Source: a virus (taxonomy: Duplodnaviria > Heunggongvirae > Uroviricota > Caudoviricetes). From it: a stretch of DNA of 6,849 nt. Each line of letters begins with the position of its first letter. Position 1 is the stretch's first letter. Below, piece by piece: positions 1 to 6,849 of this stretch. Made by a program: the position numbers and the translations under genes. The DNA is taken from positions 1 through 6,849 of IMG/VR virus record IMGVR_UViG_2617270976_000007; one strand, written 5' to 3'. The notes under the pieces were generated by a model. That model did no database searches. It saw nothing but the letters and a program-made list of their open reading frames with translations, and was not told the origin of the DNA.

Positions 1-237
1 CTGTCACCCTTTGACGTGGTGATATGGATGACGGATGGCTGGCCGCTGTATGAATCCCGCCTGAAGGGAAAGCTGCACGTAATCAGCAAGCGATATACGC
101 AGCGAATTGAGCGGCATAACCTGAATCTGAGGCAGCACCTGGCACGGCTGGGACGGAAGTCGCTGTCGTTCTCAAAATCGGTGGAGCTGCATGACAAAGT
201 CATCGGGCATTATCTGAACATAAAACACTATCAATAA
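1..237 (+). CDS. insB: IS1 transposase InsB (InsAB' C-terminal portion), 5'-partial; start lies outside the window
   Basis: Frame-1 translation from base 1 reads [78 protein letters not shown], then stop TAA at 235-237. This matches the IS1 InsB C-terminus; the ORF-track Met at 16 is internal. Confidence 0.9.
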
Positions 238-252
238 GTTGGAGTCATTACC
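1..252 (+). mobile_element. IS1 insertion sequence, right-hand portion (window starts inside the element); ends with the IS1 terminal inverted repeat at 230-252
   Basis: Frame 1 encodes the C-terminal part of IS1 InsB; the element ends with ...cactatcaataagttggagtcattacc, the IS1 right end as I remember it. Bases 1-252 are the exact reverse complement of 6570-6821. Confidence 0.93.
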
Positions 253-278
253 TCATTTTTCAGATGGTGGAAAGAACC

Positions 279-2132
279 ATGGCATTTAAACACTATGATG
301 TTGTCAGGGCGGCGTCGCCGTCAGATCTTGCGGAAAAGCTGACACATAAACTGAAAGAGGGCTGGCAGCCGTTTGGTAGTCCGGTGGCCATAACCCCTTA
401 TACCCTGATGCAGGCGATTGCAGCAGAAGGTGATGTGGTCGTCAGTGGTGCAACTGAGCCGGAGTGGTACTACGTCATCGTACTGGCCGGGCAGTCCAAT
501 GCCATGGCTTACGGTGAAGGGCTTCCGCTTCCGGATTCATACGATGCGCCCCATCCGCGCATTAAGCAACTGGCCCGTCGTAACACAGTGACTCCCGGTG
601 GTGAAGTATGCGTATTTAACGACATCATTCCTGCTGACCATTGTCTGCATGATGTTCAGGATATGAGTACGATTAACCATCCCCGGGCTGACCTGAGCAA
701 AGGGCAGTACGGCTGTGTCGGCCAGGGCTTACATATTGCCAAAAAAATGCTTCCGTATATCCCTAATAATGCGGGGATCCTGCTGGTACCATGCTGTCGT
801 GGTGGTTCGGCATTCACCCAGGGCACGGAGGGGACATTCAGCGAGTCCACGGGGGCCAGTCAGGATTCGGCTCGCTGGGGAGTGGGTAAGCCGTTATATC
901 AGGATCTGCTTTTCCGCACGAAGGCAGCATTGCAGAAAAACCCGAAAAACGTTTTGCTGGCGATATGCTGGATGCAGGGGGAATTCGATATGACGAATGC
1001 CAGTTACGCCCAGCAGCCAGCAGCATTTCTTGCAATGGTACAGCAGTTCCGTGCTGACCTTGCCGGGCTGGCAGCGCAGTGTCACGGTGGAAGTCCGGCA
1101 TCAGTCCCCTGGATTTGTGGCGACACGACATACGCGTGGAAACAAGAACACGGTACGCAATATGAAGTGGTATATGGTGCATATAAAGGTAAAGAATCCC
1201 AGCAGATTTATTTTGTTCCCTTTATGACCGATGGTAGCGGAGTTAATACACCGACAAACAACCCGTCAGAAGATCCTGATATTGCCGGGTCTGGTTATTA
1301 CGGTTCGGCATCCCGAACGAACAAAAACTGGGTATCATCAAATCGCCCGACGCATTTCAGCTCATGGGCGCGTCGTGGCATTATTCCCGATCGTATGGCA
1401 ACTGCTATTCTGAACGTAGCCGGGCGCACCTCAGCCTTCATCAGTGGTAAGGCACCGGAAATCAAACCCTCGCCCGGCGGCGACACGCCATCGGTGCCGT
1501 CTGAAGATGCATCCGTACGCACAATCTCCCTGTTGCCGACAGCCGGAGATGCTGCTGCGCAGGGCTGGAGCATTAAGAATGGCGGAATTCAGTTGTCAGA
1601 TGGTGTATTTAAGATCACCAAGCAGAGCAATAAAGCCTGGTCCCTGACGCGCCCGGTGGATGACGCAGTCTCCCTGCTGACACGGGGTGGCAGACTGAGC
1701 TGTAAGTTTCGACTGTCAGGCGCACTGACCAACAACCAGTTCGGTCTGGGAATTTATCTGTATACCGATGTAGCGTTACCTGACGTCGTGGCGATGACCG
1801 GGACTGGTAACCCGTTCCTGATGTCGTTCTTCACCCAGACCACAGACGGCAAACTGAATCTGATGCATCACAAGAAAGCCGGAAACACAAAGTTGGGCGA
1901 GTTCGGGAATTACAGTAACGACTGGCAGACGCTGGAGCTGGTGTTCACCGCCGGCAGTGCCACGGTTACTCCGAAACTGAATGGAGTGGCTGGCCCGGCA
2001 TTCCAGGTCATAAAAGACAGTCTGACAGTGGGACTAAATGCACTGACGCTGACGGATATTACCAAAAATGCAACGTATGGCGTTGAGATAGAAAGTCTGG
2101 TGCTGGAGATAAATGCACCGGCATCATCATAA
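279..2132 (+). CDS. nanS-p: Prophage sialate O-acetylesterase of the NanS/YjhS family (NanS-p-like): N-terminal extension, SGNH/SASA esterase core, C-terminal beta-rich putative carbohydrate-binding domain
   Basis: Long ORF with stop TAA at 2130-2132. The GQSN serine block ([19 protein letters not shown]) and following blocks ([56 protein letters not shown]) match the NanS esterase family as I recall it. About 220 extra C-terminal residues fit the phage-borne NanS-p architecture. Start is uncertain: ATG 279 (GGTGGA 7 nt upstream) or in-frame ATG 264. Confidence 0.8.
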
Positions 2133-2217
2133 AAAGTGAGCCAGTCAAATGGAAGGTATCGTTAAACTCACCGGTAGTGTCAGTGGGTCGTCTGAGACGC
2201 CTGCATGAGTTATCAGA

Positions 2218-2249
2218 GCCATCAGTACTTAACTGGTGGCTTTTTTATT
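2218..2249 (+). terminator. Putative rho-independent terminator between the esterase gene and the holin
   Basis: Stem GCCATCAG (2218-2225), loop TACTTAA, stem CTGGTGGC (2233-2240; 8 bp with one G-U pair), followed by TTTTTTATT (2241-2249). Confidence 0.55.
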
Positions 2250-2281
2250 GTTGTCAGCTTCCGGATAACGGGAGACGGGGT

Positions 2282-2497
2282 ATGTACCAGATGGAAAAAA
2301 TCACAACAGGTGTGTCATACACCACGTCAGCGGTGGGAACGGGCTACTGGTTCCTGCAGTTGCTGGACAGGGTTTCCCCGTCTCAGTGGGCGGCAATAGG
2401 CGTGCTGGGGAGTCTGCTGTTTGGGCTGCTGACATATCTGACTAACCTGTATTTCAAAATCAGAGAGGACCGTCGTAAGGCTGCACGGGGAGAGTAA
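2282..2497 (+). CDS. S: Class II holin (pinholin) of the phage 21 S21 / EssQ type, 71 aa, with dual-start motif
   Basis: [71 protein letters not shown] has two hydrophobic segments and the charged C-terminus [13 protein letters not shown] typical of S21-like pinholins. Met1 and Met4 give the holin/antiholin dual start. GGAG lies upstream. The 106-aa ORF-track version (2177) runs through the terminator and is not the real start. Confidence 0.9.
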
Positions 2498-2501
2498 TTC
2501 A

Positions 2502-2846
2502 ATGACTCAAAACTATGAACTGATTGTGAAAGGGATCCGCAATTTTGAGAATAAAGTTACGGTAACTTTAGCGTTACGGGACAAAAAACGCTTTGACGGT
2601 GAAATTTTTGACCTGGACATCTCGCTGGACCGTGTTGAAGGTGCCGCGCTGGAGTTTTATGAGGCAGCAGCCAGAAGGAGCATCAGACAGGTCTTCCTGG
2701 ATGTTGCTGCCGGGTTATGTGAAGGGGATGAGCAGTCGCCGGAAAAGCGCCCCGTAATTTTAGAGGCGCAGGATGTGTTGATAACCTACAGAGGAAAACT
2801 ACCGGGAATAATTACGGGTTCTCTGAAGAGTCCGCCGAAATGGTAA
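2502..2846 (+). CDS. Small conserved lysis-cassette protein, 114 aa, at the position ydfR (DUF1327) occupies between essQ and rrrQ in Qin-type prophages; function unknown
   Basis: ATG at 2502 is 4 nt after the holin stop, with GGAGAG 7 nt upstream, which implies translational coupling. Placement between pinholin and SAR endolysin matches the essQ-ydfR-rrrQ order. Sequence identity to YdfR was not verified. Confidence 0.65.
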   Translation: MTQNYELIVKGIRNFENKVTVTLALRDKKRFDGEIFDLDISLDRVEGAALEFYEAAARRSIRQVFLDVAAGLCEGDEQSPEKRPVILEAQDVLITYRGKLPGIITGSLKSPPKW

Positions 2847-3084
2847 TTTTACCAGCATATTTTTCATCCAGTAATACAGCAAGCCGCCTGAAAGAGTCTT
2901 GTTGTTCCTGAGACCATTTGGGATTGCATGATTCAAACTGGATTGATGCCAGCGTTGATTGCATCTGTTCCCTTGGAATTGAGAATGCCAGATATGAGAA
3001 GGCGACGGTAAGGGTATTCACGTCTTCCCGAAGCCTAGAAATGCTGTCGAGCAACTCCTGTAGAGAAATGGTGTTATTGTCCAT
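2812..3084 (-). CDS. Hypothetical 90-aa protein encoded antisense inside the lysis cassette; its 3' end overlaps the previous gene by 35 bp
   Basis: Minus-strand ATG at 3084 is preceded by GAGGA with 6-nt spacing (ATCATGAGGATTATTTATG). Translation MDNNTISLQELLDSISRLREDVNTLTVAFSYLAFSIPREQMQSTLASIQFESCNPKWSQEQQDSFRRLAVLLDEKYAGKITISADSSENP is helix-like with a balanced composition. The segment is AT-richer than the flanking lysis genes. No homolog recognised. Confidence 0.4.
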   Translation of the reverse strand: MDNNTISLQELLDSISRLREDVNTLTVAFSYLAFSIPREQMQSTLASIQFESCNPKWSQEQQDSFRRLAVLLDEKYAGKITISADSSENP

Positions 3085-3189
3085 AAATAATCCTCATGAT
3101 TGTATTGACCTGTTAGCAGCCTGAGGCAACAGGCTGGAACTGATAAACATATCCAGGGCTCAGAAACCGATAAATCCTGATAAATATCC

Positions 3190-3735
3190 ATGAACGCAAA
3201 AATCAGATACGGCCTGTCGGCTGCCGTTCTGGCGCTGATTGCCGCTGGTGCGCCTGCGCCTGACATTCTCGACCAGTTTCTGGATGAAAAGGAAGGTAAC
3301 CACACCACGGCATACCGTGATGGTGCGGGTATCTGGACCATCTGCCGCGGTGCCATCCTGGTGGATGGCAAACCTGTCGTTCCGGGCATGAAGTTGTCGA
3401 AGGAAAAATGCGACCGGGTTACTGACATGCAGATGCGTCAGCGTGATGTTGCTGCGCTCGATGCAAAATACACGAAGGAGTTAGCTGATGCGAAAGCTGA
3501 AAATGAAACTCTTCGCGCTGACGTTGCCGCTGGTCGTAAGCGCCTGCGTATCAACGCCACCTGTCCAGGTCCCGTGCGTGAAGCCACCGGCACCGCCCGC
3601 GTGGATAATGCAACCGGCCCCCAACTGGCAGACACCGTTACACGGGATTATTTCACCCTCAGAGAGCGGCTGATGACGATGCAGAAGCAACTGGAAGGGG
3701 CGCAGGAATATATCCGTACTCAGTGCCTGAAATAA
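3190..3735 (+). pseudogene. In-frame fusion of SAR endolysin R (RrrQ-like, N-terminal ~76 aa) to the i-spanin Rz C-terminal periplasmic domain; deletion junction near 3419-3424
   Basis: Residues 1-76 (MNAKIRYGLSAAVLALIAAGAPAPDILDQFLDEKEGNHTTAYRDGAGIWTICRGA...KEKCDRV) match the RrrQ/R21-type lysozyme N-terminus, including the SAR-like Ala/Gly-rich segment and the E-x8-D-x5-T catalytic spacing. From TDMQMRQRDVAALDAKYTKELADAKAEN onward the protein matches lambda Rz up to its C-terminus ...LEGAQEYIRTQCLK. The lysozyme C-terminal lobe and the Rz N-terminal membrane anchor are missing. Confidence 0.8.
3488..3673 (+). CDS. Rz1: Rz1 outer-membrane lipoprotein (o-spanin), embedded in the +1 frame of the Rz portion
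   Basis: MRKLKMKLFALTLPLVVSACVSTPPVQVPCVKPPAPPAWIMQPAPNWQTPLHGIISPSESG has a signal peptide with lipobox VSAC and the proline-rich mature region, closely like lambda Rz1. AAGGAG sits 7 nt upstream of the ATG. Confidence 0.85.
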   Translation: MRKLKMKLFALTLPLVVSACVSTPPVQVPCVKPPAPPAWIMQPAPNWQTPLHGIISPSESG

Positions 3736-4085
3736 GTTTTGTTGATGCGCCGTATCGTCGCTGTATTCCCTCATTAACAGAGACCGCAGCCCGACAGGGA
3801 GACTCCTCTGCGCGAGTGTGCGGGGATAATCAAAAACGATACACACCGGGGTTTACCGCGTTAACGGAGCGCGGCGTTGTCCCCTCATAGTCGCCTGTCC
3901 GGTGCGATGGTGGAAGAAACCGGATGTTTATCACTATTAATTGATGACACAGAAATGGATTCATTGAATTTCAGCACGTTTTTGTATTCGTGTTATTGAA
4001 CATCTGTTTATTTTACTTTTAACATATTGATAATAAAAAGAGCTGTAAATCTTTAGATGAGTCGATTTTGTCCGGGGAAGTTCAA

Positions 4086-4226
4086 ATGGATTTTATGCTG
4101 ACGGTTTCTGGTGTGGTTATCCTGTCCATTGCTTATACTGCAGATAAATATGGCTGCCATTTGTTATCACGTATTGGCGCTTATTGTTCGTTGATGCTGA
4201 TTTTCTCGTCGCTTTTTTTTGAGTAA
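4086..4226 (+). CDS. Hypothetical 46-aa hydrophobic small protein (possible membrane peptide); not in the supplied ORF track because it is shorter than 60 aa
   Basis: ATG 4086 with GGGGAAG 5 nt upstream; translation MDFMLTVSGVVILSIAYTADKYGCHLLSRIGAYCSLMLIFSSLFFE, stop TAA 4224-4226. Possible sigma70-like promoter TTGAAC (3996-4001), 18-nt spacer, TAACAT (4020-4025). Lies in an AT-rich stretch between Rz and the cos-proximal gene. Confidence 0.3.
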   Translation: MDFMLTVSGVVILSIAYTADKYGCHLLSRIGAYCSLMLIFSSLFFE

Positions 4227-4358
4227 GTTATATTAATTATAACAAATAATTTTCTGTGTTATTTTTTCAGGCTATCCCGTCAGAGGGGAAGCCTGTACTG
4301 CCGGGGAGCGAATGGAAAACTGATGTGTCCGGTAACTGCGTGTTCTGTGAACACCATG

Positions 4359-4544
4359 TTACTTAATTATGTAATTCATACCCGAACTCTCTGTTGACAG
4401 CCTTCTTCTGCAGGCTTCAATAACCCACGCTGAAAAGTTTCCTGAACCTTTCAGATCAAGAGCGATGTTAATTTGTTCAATCATCTGGTTTGGAAATCGG
4501 ATGTTGCGGGTTGTTGTTCTGCGGGTTCTGTTCTTTGATGACAT
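4359..4544 (-). CDS. Small cos-proximal protein with predicted ribbon-helix-helix fold, homolog of the lambda right-end small ORF
   Basis: Minus-strand ATG at 4544 with GGGGA 6 nt upstream. MSSKNRTRRTTTRNIRFPNQMIEQINIALDLKGSGNFSAWVIEACRRRL... closely resembles, from memory, the small ORF on the complementary strand near lambda's right end (MSTKNRTRRTTTRNIRFPNQMIEQINIAL...FSAWVIEACRRRL). The beta-strand/helix/loop/helix layout fits an RHH DNA-binding fold. Confidence 0.7.
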   Translation of the reverse strand: MSSKNRTRRTTTRNIRFPNQMIEQINIALDLKGSGNFSAWVIEACRRRLSTESSGMNYIIK

Positions 4545-4721
4545 AATGTTTCCCCATATTCAGTGTTGCTGATTTGTATTATCTGAAGTTGCTTTTACGT
4601 TAATTTGATGCAGATCAATTAATACGATACCTGCGTCATAATTGATTATTTCTCGTGGTTTGATGGCGTACACACATGTTGTGATAAACCTTATATAGAT
4701 GATAATCATTATCATTTTCGT

Positions 4722-4915
4722 GGGTCCTTTCCGGCGATCCGACCGGTTACGGGGCGGCGACCTCGCGGGTTTTCGCTATTTATGAAAATTTTTAGGGAAA
4801 AATCAGATCCGTTCTTCTTCTTTTTAACTGATTGATTATCAATAGAATTTTAAAAATATAAAAGGATCTGACAAAGGCTGTTTTTGTTAGAAAACGCCAT
4901 TTTCAGATCCTTTCT
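4722..4915 (+). other. Lambda-type cos site: cosQ-proximal sequence, cosN (12-nt cohesive end GGGCGGCGACCT at 4752-4763) and cosB with three terminase-binding repeats
   Basis: GGGTCCTTTCCGGCGATCCGACCGGTTACG|GGGCGGCGACCTCGCGGGTTTTCGCTATTTATGAAAATTT is near-identical to the lambda genome-end junction. Three CAGATCC elements (about 4806-4812 direct, 4863-4869 inverted, 4904-4910 direct) have the orientation pattern of lambda R3/R2/R1, immediately upstream of the small terminase gene. Confidence 0.85.
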
Positions 4916-4932
4916 GGTTCCCGGGGGAGTGT

Positions 4933-5481
4933 ATGAACGTCAATAAGAAAAAACTGGCCGATATTTTTGGCGTTGATGTCAGGACCATCACCGCCTGGCA
5001 GAGTCAGGGGTTACCACTAGTTTCTGGTGGAGGGAAAGGGACTGAATCAGTTTTTGATACAACTGCTGCCATTCAGTGGTATGCGCAGAGGGAAGCTGAT
5101 ATTGAAAACGAAAAACTCCGTAAAGAGATCGAGGATTTGAGGGCTGCCAGCGAATCAGACCTTCAGCCCGGCACCATTGATTACGAACGTTACCGACTGA
5201 TGAAGGCACAGGCCGATGCACAGGAGCTGAAAAATGCTCGTGAGGAAGGCCTTGTCCTCGAGACGGAGTTATTTACCTACATCTTTCAGCGAGTGGCACA
5301 GAATATATCAGGGATCCTTGTCCGTGTCCCTCAGACACTGCAGCGTAAATACCCTGATATATCACCCGTACATCTTGATGCTGTGAAAACTGAAATCGCG
5401 AAAGCATCCGATGTGGCTTCTGAAGCCGGTGAGAATGTGCGCAGGTGGATTGATGATTTCAGACGAACTGAGGGCGGCTAA
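4933..5481 (+). CDS. nu1: Terminase small subunit (lambda Nu1 / NohA family), apparently full length, 182 aa
   Basis: [42 protein letters not shown]...[48 protein letters not shown] aligns along its length with lambda Nu1 (MEVNKKQLADIFGASIRTIQNWQEQGMPVLRGGGKG...). It sits directly downstream of cosB and its stop (TAA 5479-5481) overlaps the start of the next gene. Confidence 0.9.
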
Positions 5482-6103
5482 TTCTGCAGGAGCGATAGCA
5501 ACCGGCCTCCTTGCGCTAAAAATTCCTGTCCCTCTGACGACAGTTCAGTGGGCAGATCGACATTATTACCTTCCGAAAGAGTCATCTTACACCCCGGGGC
5601 GGTGGGAAACACTGCCGTTTCAGGTTGCCATCATGAACAGCATGGGGAATGACCGGATCCGCACTGTTAATCTGATTAAATCTGCCCGTGTTGGTTATAC
5701 AAAGATGTTGCTGGGAGTGGAGGCTTATTTTATTGAGCATAAATCACGCAACAGCCTTCTTTTCCAGCCCACGGATTCTGCTGCTGAAGATTTTATGAAA
5801 TCTCATGTGGAACCCACGATCAGGGATGTGCCGGTTTTACTCGATCTTGCACCGTGGTTTGGGCGTAAACATCGTGATAATACCCTCACGCTGAAACGTT
5901 TTTCATCGGGCGTGGGCTTCTGGTGCCTGGGCGGGGCTGCCGCTAAAAACTACCGTGAAAAATCCGTGGACGTGGTCTGCTATGACGAACTTTCCTCGTT
6001 CGAACCGGATGTCGAAAAAGAGGGTTCGCCAACCCTGCTTGGGGATAAACGTATTGAGGGCTCTGTATGGCCCAAGCCGCCGTGCAGGAGAACCAGCGAG
6101 TGA
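5453..6103 (+). pseudogene. A: Terminase large subunit (lambda gpA family), N-terminal ~216 aa only; truncated by an internal deletion with the junction near 6077-6080
   Basis: ...VQWADRHYYLPKESSYTPGRWETLPFQVAIMNSMGNDRIRTVNLIKSARVGYTKMLLGVEAYFIEHK...GFWCLGGAAAKNYREKSVDVVCYDELSSFEPDVEKEGSPTLLGDKRIEGSVWPK matches lambda gpA residues ~35-205. Similarity ends after GSVWPK and the frame stops at 6101-6103, whereas full gpA is about 640 aa. Start codon is uncertain (5453, 5435 or 5411, all in frame). Confidence 0.85.
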
Positions 6104-6569
6104 TGGGGATCCTGACATGCCAGGAAGCGAAAGGACGTGAACAGCTTGCCACGATGCTGGCAGGGCAACAGGGCATGAGCGTTGAACAGGCCCGGGCGAT
6201 TCTGGCCGCGGCGGCACCGCAGCAGCCGGTGGCATCCGCGCAGAGTGAAGCCGATCGCATTATGGCGTGTGAAGAAGCGAACGGTCGTGAACAACTGGCA
6301 GTAACGCTGGCGGCGATGCCGGAGATGACGGTGGAAAAAGCCCGCCCGATCCTGGCTGCTTCACCGCAGGCGAATGCCGGACCATCACTCCGTGATCAGA
6401 TCATGGCCCTGGATGAGGCAAAAGGGGCTGAGGCGCAGGCTGAACAGCTGGCTGCCTGCCCGGGAATGACCGTGGAGAGCGCCCGGGCTGTGCTGGCTGC
6501 GGGATCAGGTAAGGCAGAACCGGTCTCTGCATCCACAACCGCCCTGTTTGAACATTTCATGGCGAACCA
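6079..6569 (+). pseudogene. Fragment of a repeat-containing phage protein (three ~45-aa tandem repeats; possibly the C-terminal region of a head protease/scaffold-type morphogenesis protein); 5' end set by the deletion junction, 3' end interrupted by IS1
   Basis: Frame-1 translation contains three related units: RVMGILTCQEAKGREQLATMLAG..MSVEQARAILAAA; RIMACEEANGREQLAVTLAAMPEMTVEKARPILAAS; QIMALDEAKGAEAQAEQLAACPGMTVESARAVLAAG. The last codons (VMTPTY, stop) are IS1-derived, so the native C-terminus is lost at 6570. Functional assignment is a guess. Confidence 0.4.
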
Positions 6570-6849
6570 GGTAATGACTCCAACTTATTGATAGTGTTTT
6601 ATGTTCAGATAATGCCCGATGACTTTGTCATGCAGCTCCACCGATTTTGAGAACGACAGCGACTTCCGTCCCAGCCGTGCCAGGTGCTGCCTCAGATTCA
6701 GGTTATGCCGCTCAATTCGCTGCGTATATCGCTTGCTGATTACGTGCAGCTTTCCCTTCAGGCGGGATTCATACAGCGGCCAGCCATCCGTCATCCATAT
6801 CACCACGTCAAAGGGTGACAGCAGGCTCATAAGACGCCCCAGCGTCGCC
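6570..6849 (-). mobile_element. IS1 insertion sequence, right-hand portion in reverse orientation (extends beyond the window); terminal inverted repeat GGTAATGACTCCAACTTATTGAT at 6570-6592
   Basis: 6570-6821 is the exact reverse complement of 1-252; starts with the canonical IS1 terminal repeat and encodes InsB on the minus strand. Confidence 0.93.
6585..6849 (-). CDS. insB: IS1 transposase InsB (InsAB' C-terminal portion), 5'-partial; coding continues beyond the window edge
   Basis: Minus-strand translation ...[87 protein letters not shown], stop at 6585-6587; identical to the InsB fragment at 1-237. Confidence 0.9.

Follow-up and report, generated by a model that had tools for sequence, protein, structure and literature searches.

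Two ends of the insertion sequence IS1, inverted with respect to one another and with their right terminal repeats facing inward, bracket a unique interior segment of ~6.3 kb in the virus record IMGVR_UViG_2617270976_000007. This arrangement raises the question of whether the bracketed segment, a piece of lambdoid prophage, constitutes a mobile unit or whether the IS1 ends mark ordinary insertions into a prophage that is decaying in place. The window considered here is the whole stretch of DNA analysed, 6,849 nucleotides in length. We favor, with a probability of roughly 0.8, an ordinary decaying lambda-like prophage whose contig was broken at IS1 and which carries two separate in-situ insertions of IS1A or parts of it. 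The view of the bracketed block as a mobile unit is unsupported, as we found no evidence for it.

IS1 ends at the edges of a draft contig

A repeat finder returned a single perfect inverted repeat with arms at 1-253 and 6569-6821 (253 nt, 100% identity). It is the only long repeat in the window, the remainder being two- or three-copy matches of 14-29 nt at chance level, and its 253rd pair (T253/A6569) is a chance extension of one base past the IS1 termini. Using the annotated IS1A of Escherichia coli K-12 (NC_000913.3, 19796-20563) as the reference, window positions 1-252 align with IS1A positions 517-768 and the reverse complement of 6570-6849 aligns with positions 489-768, with no mismatch in either alignment. 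The right terminal repeat (...AAGTTGGAGTCATTACC) closes both arms on the side of the interior. The C-terminus of InsB is read inward from both sides, in open reading frames at 16-237 on the forward strand and 6585-6830 on the reverse strand, and the Pfam family DDE_Tnp_IS1 (PF03400) matches the called genes at 1-237 and 6585-6849. The left stub (1-252, forward strand) thus holds the C-terminal part of InsB up to position 237 and the right terminal inverted repeat at approximately 230-252, while the right stub (6570-6849, reverse strand) is inverted relative to it; each is cut by a contig end. In both arms the right terminal repeat and the adjacent InsB C-terminal coding sequence match the reference IS1, and what is seen of each 768-bp element is the 3' third only (252 bp and 280 bp). 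A first-pass annotation of this DNA, made from the sequence alone, had described inverted IS1 copies with right ends inward and a left 252 bp identical to the right copy, and the repeat finder and the IS1A alignment both bear this description out. The two right-end junctions are distinct and call for no fewer than two physical copies of IS1, whole or partial, in inverted orientation, because any given IS1 possesses a single right end. For the same reason we rejected a circular molecule in which one IS1 would connect the two ends of the window, as both junctions use the right end.

The edges of the window are also the edges of an assembly. An exact-product look-up of an endolysin-Rz fusion protein encoded in the interior gave a single record and placed the window as the entire 6849-bp contig JNQT01000097.1 (range 1-6849) of the draft assembly GCA_000704325.1, and look-ups of three further products returned the same contig status. 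The window is therefore a complete short-read contig from an E. coli-type draft genome, carrying a piece of a decayed lambda-like prophage. The record stops 252 bp into IS1 on the left and 280 bp into it on the right, and because the window is the whole contig and ends in IS1, the outer IS1 ends and their target duplications fall beyond it. Short-read assembly is complicated by multi-copy insertion sequences, and contigs end beside such copies (PMC4558774). The collections searched in this work comprised 5,426 complete E. coli genomes, 72,556 plasmids, 50,697 phages, GTDB representatives and JGI metagenome contigs. With a 131-bp query that begins with 63 bases of IS1, matches were obtained in 5,000 of the 5,426 complete E. 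coli genomes, the number of matching places having a median of 10 and reaching 66 at most. IS1 is the multi-copy repeat at which the assembler stopped, and the ends of the window are contig-end stubs. Since the arms represent the consensus of a collapsed multi-copy repeat, their identity says little about the history of the two IS1 copies.

A draft contig ending in a collapsed repeat could also owe its bracketed appearance to the assembly itself, with IS1 stubs wrongly appended or with two internal deletions, described below, being chimeric joins. We regard such an artefact as highly improbable. Both junctions coincide to the base with the canonical IS1 terminus (GGTAATGACTCC.../...GGAGTCATTACC), an IS1 of another genome lies one bp from the position of the left junction, and assemblers would be expected to join on long exact overlaps and not on the 2-3 bp of microhomology seen at the deletions.

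Insertion points in the prophage

The inner side of each IS1 end can be compared with relatives in which the same DNA is uninterrupted. On the right, an IS1-free relative reads GCGAACCA followed by TTCACCGG inside an S49 peptidase gene, or GCGAACCA followed by TTCACCGGCTGC in another extract of the uninterrupted continuation, whereas the window reads GCGAACCA followed by GGTAATGACTCC. IS1 interrupts this head protease gene at 6569/6570, 85 bp before its natural stop, and the interrupted frame extends 22 nt into IS1; the first-pass annotation had placed the interruption of a coding frame at exactly this position. The inner 9 bp at the right IS1 (GGCGAACCA, 6561-6569) are a candidate copy of a target duplication. 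On the left, IS1 ends at 252, and the bases from 253 on run continuous with the spacer between iraM and the esterase gene of strain AR_0058 (AAAGAA TCATTTTTC AGATGGTGG), in which the uninterrupted site AAAGAATCATTTTTCAGATGG is present. The 9 bp beside the right end of this IS1 (TCATTTTTC, 253-261) are likewise a candidate target-site duplication copy, the partner of which would lie beyond the contig. The ATG of the esterase gene (the annotated start in relatives, giving a protein of 617 aa) stands at 279, leaving 26 intervening bases, so the distance of 27 bp given previously is correct within counting convention. Both inner junctions are precise in-situ insertion points in prophage DNA, because at both of them the same DNA is continuous in IS1-free relatives.

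The right junction was absent from the complete E. coli genomes. For the left junction, only strain razor3 was near-identical among them, and it proved to carry an independent insertion 1 bp away. The razor3 element is a complete 768-bp IS1 of a different isoform, in the same orientation and one base further right, with a 9-bp duplication (CATTTTTCA) of the canonical kind. Two other genomes have an IS1 nearby in the same orientation: strain AR_0058 has one inside iraM, and the ST131 strain 4224 has one on the side of iraM away from the esterase. Together with the window, these genomes provide four IS1 positions in four genomes within ~700 bp upstream of the prophage esterase gene (window 253-278; loci L003 11287-12072, L004 8351-9048 and L006 851-1548), representing at least two isoforms and with the transposase directed toward the esterase in all cases. 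This clustering suggests that the ~700 bp upstream of the esterase are a regional, perhaps orientation-biased, IS1 hot spot. The left insertion lies in an AT-rich stretch. A separate IS1 insertion upstream of the esterase would be unremarkable, because that region is a hot spot for the element.

The stubs agree with IS1A of K-12, which forms simple insertions in cryptic lambdoid prophages, throughout the 252 and 280 bp that can be seen, right terminal repeat included, and in having an AT-rich insertion site. The window differs in showing only the 3' third of each copy, as the left repeats, the part with the insA/insB frameshift and the duplications lie outside the record.

The left IS1 leaves the ribosome-binding region and the open reading frame of the esterase intact and cuts off everything upstream. 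An IS1-made hybrid promoter for the esterase was considered and is unsupported, as a simple promoter scan found no promoter-like site at the IS1/esterase junction; the promoter and terminator counts of the window overall were no higher than in shuffled sequence. As a separate observation, a mosaic boundary lies close to the insertion point: positions 253-277 match the iraM-linked type of spacer (AR_0058, razor3, TW14425), and from 278 on the sequence is closest to prophages whose upstream spacer is of another type, such as that of 2017C-4173W12 (99.4%).

Possible inversion and movement of the bracketed segment

In the reading that we favor, two microhomology deletions independent of IS1 have eroded a lambdoid late region, and an IS1A element, or part of one, has inserted on the left into the intergenic, AT-rich hot spot, leaving 26 bp to the start of the esterase gene, and another on the right inside the head protease gene. 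IS1 here acts as a mutagen and a recombination substrate, inactivating and fragmenting the prophage, and the draft assembly broke at the IS1 copies. We infer that the copies are full length and arrived by separate transposition events. Among three possible states of the flanks, two simple insertions with prophage DNA continuing outside are the most likely; an inversion of the segment is possible, as is an IS1-mediated deletion or composite transposition that would give unrelated flanking DNA. The left end of IS1 reads GGTGATGCTGCCAACTTACTGAT..., and two simple insertions would predict outer contigs with ...GGTATTTTAAAGAATCATTTTTC joined to GGTGATGCTGCC on the iraM side and GGCAGCATCACC joined to GGCGAACCATTCACCGGCTGCGG... 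on the other, the latter leading into the 3' end of the protease gene and then the head decoration and capsid genes.

Several considerations weigh against two separate insertions. Since the record contains neither the outer half nor the outer flank of either IS1, full length, target duplications and independent insertion are assumptions. Inverted IS1 junctions only 6.3 kb apart are also the product expected from a single intramolecular replicative event, a duplicative inversion. Furthermore, the arms are identical, as recent sister copies would be, yet repeat collapse and the uniformity of IS1A predict identity too.

These considerations lead to the alternative that the two IS1 ends belong to the parent and daughter elements of one intramolecular replicative transposition, or to two simple insertions between which homologous recombination subsequently inverted the DNA. 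The orientation of the 6.3-kb segment would then be opposite to that of the remaining prophage, the iraM side would lie outside the right IS1, and the final 85 bp of the protease gene, together with the head genes, would lie outside the left IS1. By our own derivation, duplicative inversion yields inverted copies with the same (right) ends inward, as seen here, but like ends face inward in any inverted pair and the geometry does not discriminate. Elements of the IS1 family appear to transpose replicatively within a molecule, according to PMC4471558, which refers for this to Turlan and Chandler (EMBO J 1995). The identity of the arms would fit this history as well, but is uninformative in a collapsed repeat, and at a left site that is an independent IS1 hot spot a separate insertion is unsurprising. 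We consider an inversion unlikely.

The first-pass annotation had further proposed that the inverted copies allow inversion by homologous recombination and composite-transposon-like movement of the block of esterase, lysis and cos sequences. This capacity stands as a generic property of any inverted pair of insertion sequences; for this particular block we found no supporting evidence. Composite transposons flanked by IS1 include Tn9, with direct copies, and Tn1681, with inverted copies around a heat-stable enterotoxin gene. The window resembles them in having a few kb of passenger DNA between two IS1 ends, inverted as in Tn1681, and a 6.3-kb segment bracketed in this manner could be an active element (IS1-esterase/lysis/cos/Nu1-IS1) that has moved, or could move, through its outer IS1 left ends. 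In contrast to Tn9 and Tn1681, however, the passenger consists of prophage genes in native order, approximately half of them truncated, with no second location in the collections searched. The inner junctions lie at the in-situ positions of a contiguous prophage layout, so that the block has not demonstrably left its birthplace, and its cargo is mostly broken genes with no obvious selectable function.

The searches point in the same direction. None of the five collections listed above contains the block as a unit: coverage of the window did not exceed 85% in any complete E. coli genome, no plasmid or phage record spans >=80% of the interior, and the exact patterns of the right junction, the left junction and one internal deletion (gpA/S49) are absent from the GTDB species representatives and JGI metagenome contigs. 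The right junction and both deletion junctions were found only in this contig. The look-ups likewise traced the esterase, endolysin-Rz fusion, terminase stub and protease stub, as exact products, to this contig alone (2 samples), and a 174-aa open reading frame variant had no record in the exact-product look-up. The same unit at more than one location or replicon was accordingly not encountered in these collections, and we judge an active composite transposon to be very unlikely. Population data had been proposed as the place to look for an inverted or relocated segment, and neither was observed in the genomes, plasmids, phages, GTDB or JGI sequences. The IS1-bracketed unit is known from a single lineage in a single context, and the failure to observe relocation or the other orientation is absence of evidence and not disproof.

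A more elaborate version of this idea would make the inverted-IS1 composite transposon a transposable cos cassette that spreads a mucin-sugar esterase and is packaged by a helper lambdoid phage. If this were true, the intact cos, Nu1 and NanS-p esterase would render the element transposable, and packageable after landing on a suitably sized replicon. We give this version almost no credence.

Gene content and decay of the prophage remnant

The interior (253-6569) is a remnant of a lambdoid prophage late region, as indicated by Pfam, PHROGs and PDB matches and by annotated relatives, and the earlier designation of a prophage remnant is upheld by gene content and relatives alike. The DNA is most closely related to intact prophages of complete E. 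coli genomes, at 99.4% identity over 278-6075, as in E. coli 2017C-4173W12. In the relative NZ_CP030768.1 the gene order is Q, methyltransferase, tRNAs, esterase, holin, ydfR, lysozyme, Rz, ylcI, nu1, A, W, portal, S49 peptidase, D, E and tail genes.

Comparison with IS1-free relatives had been recommended as a means of reconstructing deletions, and a comparison with NZ_CP030768.1 yielded two, of 754 bp and ~4.0 kb. The 754-bp deletion extends from the endolysin gene to Rz, with its junction at 3418/3419 and a 3-bp microhomology (TTA), and creates an in-frame fusion in which the first ~76 endolysin residues are joined to Rz residues ~51-155; the N-terminus of Rz is replaced and Rz1 is intact. 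The endolysin residues that are retained presumably comprise both the N-terminal signal-anchor segment and the region of the E-D-T catalytic motif known from phage-21-type endolysins. The fusion, although an intact open reading frame of 181 aa, is probably an accident of decay. The ~4.0-kb deletion joins gpA to the S49 gene at ~6075/6076, with a 2-bp microhomology (AA) and out of frame. As neither junction touches IS1, these are not IS1-adjacent deletions, and the earlier hint that IS1 explains the deletions of the remnant does not hold for either, both being microhomology junctions far from IS1. Neither deletion was found in the complete E. coli genomes.

The first gene of the interior (279-2132, forward strand) is intact and encodes a sialate O-acetylesterase of the NanS-p type with 617 aa, containing DUF1737, SASA and DUF6645 domains (PF08410, PF03629, PF20350). 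It matches NanS (PDB 3PT5, E=8.5e-122) and NanS-p (6YP6, E=9e-31) and is annotated in relatives as a SASA family carbohydrate esterase. From its domain composition, namely the DUF1737 N-terminal domain, a SASA domain homologous to NanS and the NanS-p C-terminal domain, the protein is predicted to be a NanS-p esterase. The exact 617-aa sequence is on record only in this contig, close variants are widespread, and the gene is intact amid the decay of its surroundings. Between the esterase and holin genes lies a strong terminator-like hairpin (2215-2243, forward strand) of 12 pairs followed by a T run, in a window whose overall terminator count does not exceed that of shuffled sequence.

The lysis region follows, with an intact class II holin of the phage 21 S type (2282-2497, forward; PF04971, E=9e-33), a YdfR/DUF1327 protein (2502-2846, forward; PF07041, E=7e-43; phrog_406) and, on the reverse strand, a conserved phage hypothetical protein of 90 aa that is annotated in relatives (2812-3084; phrog_2411, E=1e-58). 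The endolysin-Rz fusion occupies 3190-3735 (forward) and shows Pfam matches to Phage_lysozyme at residues 33-85 and Phage_lysis at 72-179, in agreement with its alignment to NZ_CP030768.1; the intact Rz1 lipoprotein gene is embedded in it at 3488-3673 (forward; PF06085, E=1e-19). A small YlcI/YnfO (DUF3950) protein is encoded at 4359-4544 on the reverse strand (PF13132 and annotation in relatives).

The packaging end of the remnant begins with a lambda-type cosN core, GGGCGGCGACCT, at 4752-4763 on the forward strand, a single exact match with 0 expected by chance, ~170 bp upstream of nu1; we take this sequence to be that of the lambda cohesive ends. It is followed by the intact gene for the terminase small subunit Nu1 (4933-5481, forward; PF07471, E=1e-85) and by the 5' third of the gene for the large subunit gpA (5453-6075, forward; PF05876, phrog_4145), which retains ~208 codons and then runs out of frame to a stop at 6103. 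The 3' fragment of the S49 head maturation protease/scaffold gene (6076-6569, forward) is a 100% match to S49 family peptidase genes (phrog_53). The window therefore retains the order of a lambda-like cos-packaging late region, with the cosN core, nu1 and then the large terminase gene.

Two features of the DNA around cosN were also noted. An AT-rich stretch at 3900-4950 (GC 0.36-0.42) contains an imperfect 23-nt inverted repeat at 4861-4913, 83% complementary with a 7-nt spacer, between cosN and the nu1 start, which may belong to the terminase-binding region or form a regulatory hairpin. In the closest relatives (H1-H6), a remnant of an IS3-family transposase of ~410 bp (L002 11549-11958) lies between ylcI and nu1; by span arithmetic, the window (~4545-4932) and other relatives, such as NZ_CM142696.1, appear to be without it.

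The gene order of the window is that of the late region in Stx-type and related lambdoid prophages (Q - tRNAs - [stx] - nanS-p - S - R - Rz/Rz1 - cos - nu1 - A - W - B - C ...). A NanS-p esterase upstream of the lysis genes has been described for Stx2a phages (PMC10462455). The window departs from this layout in that the endolysin and Rz are fused, that W, B, most of A and the 5' two-thirds of C have been lost by deletion, and that the contig lacks whatever such prophages have upstream of the esterase and beyond the protease gene. Among the open reading frames of the window there were none for portal, capsid or tail proteins, and tRNA and Rfam scans of it returned no tRNA gene and no Rfam family. 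With the endolysin-Rz fusion and the gpA-S49 deletion, this is not a functional prophage.

IS1 insertions in cryptic prophages, draft contigs bounded by insertion sequences and microhomology deletions in decaying prophages are routine in E. coli and Shigella genomics. The biological significance of the locus is small: the observation is genuine, its biology is ordinary, and it is partly an effect of assemblies that end at repeats. It carries a methodological lesson, in that when a scanned window is a whole draft contig, terminal insertion sequence stubs and their perfect identity reflect repeat collapse, and such stubs should not be taken as a defined mobile structure. For the prophages themselves, IS1 insertions at the hot spot upstream of the esterase separate nanS-p and the lysis genes from everything upstream, which in such prophages presumably includes the late promoter.

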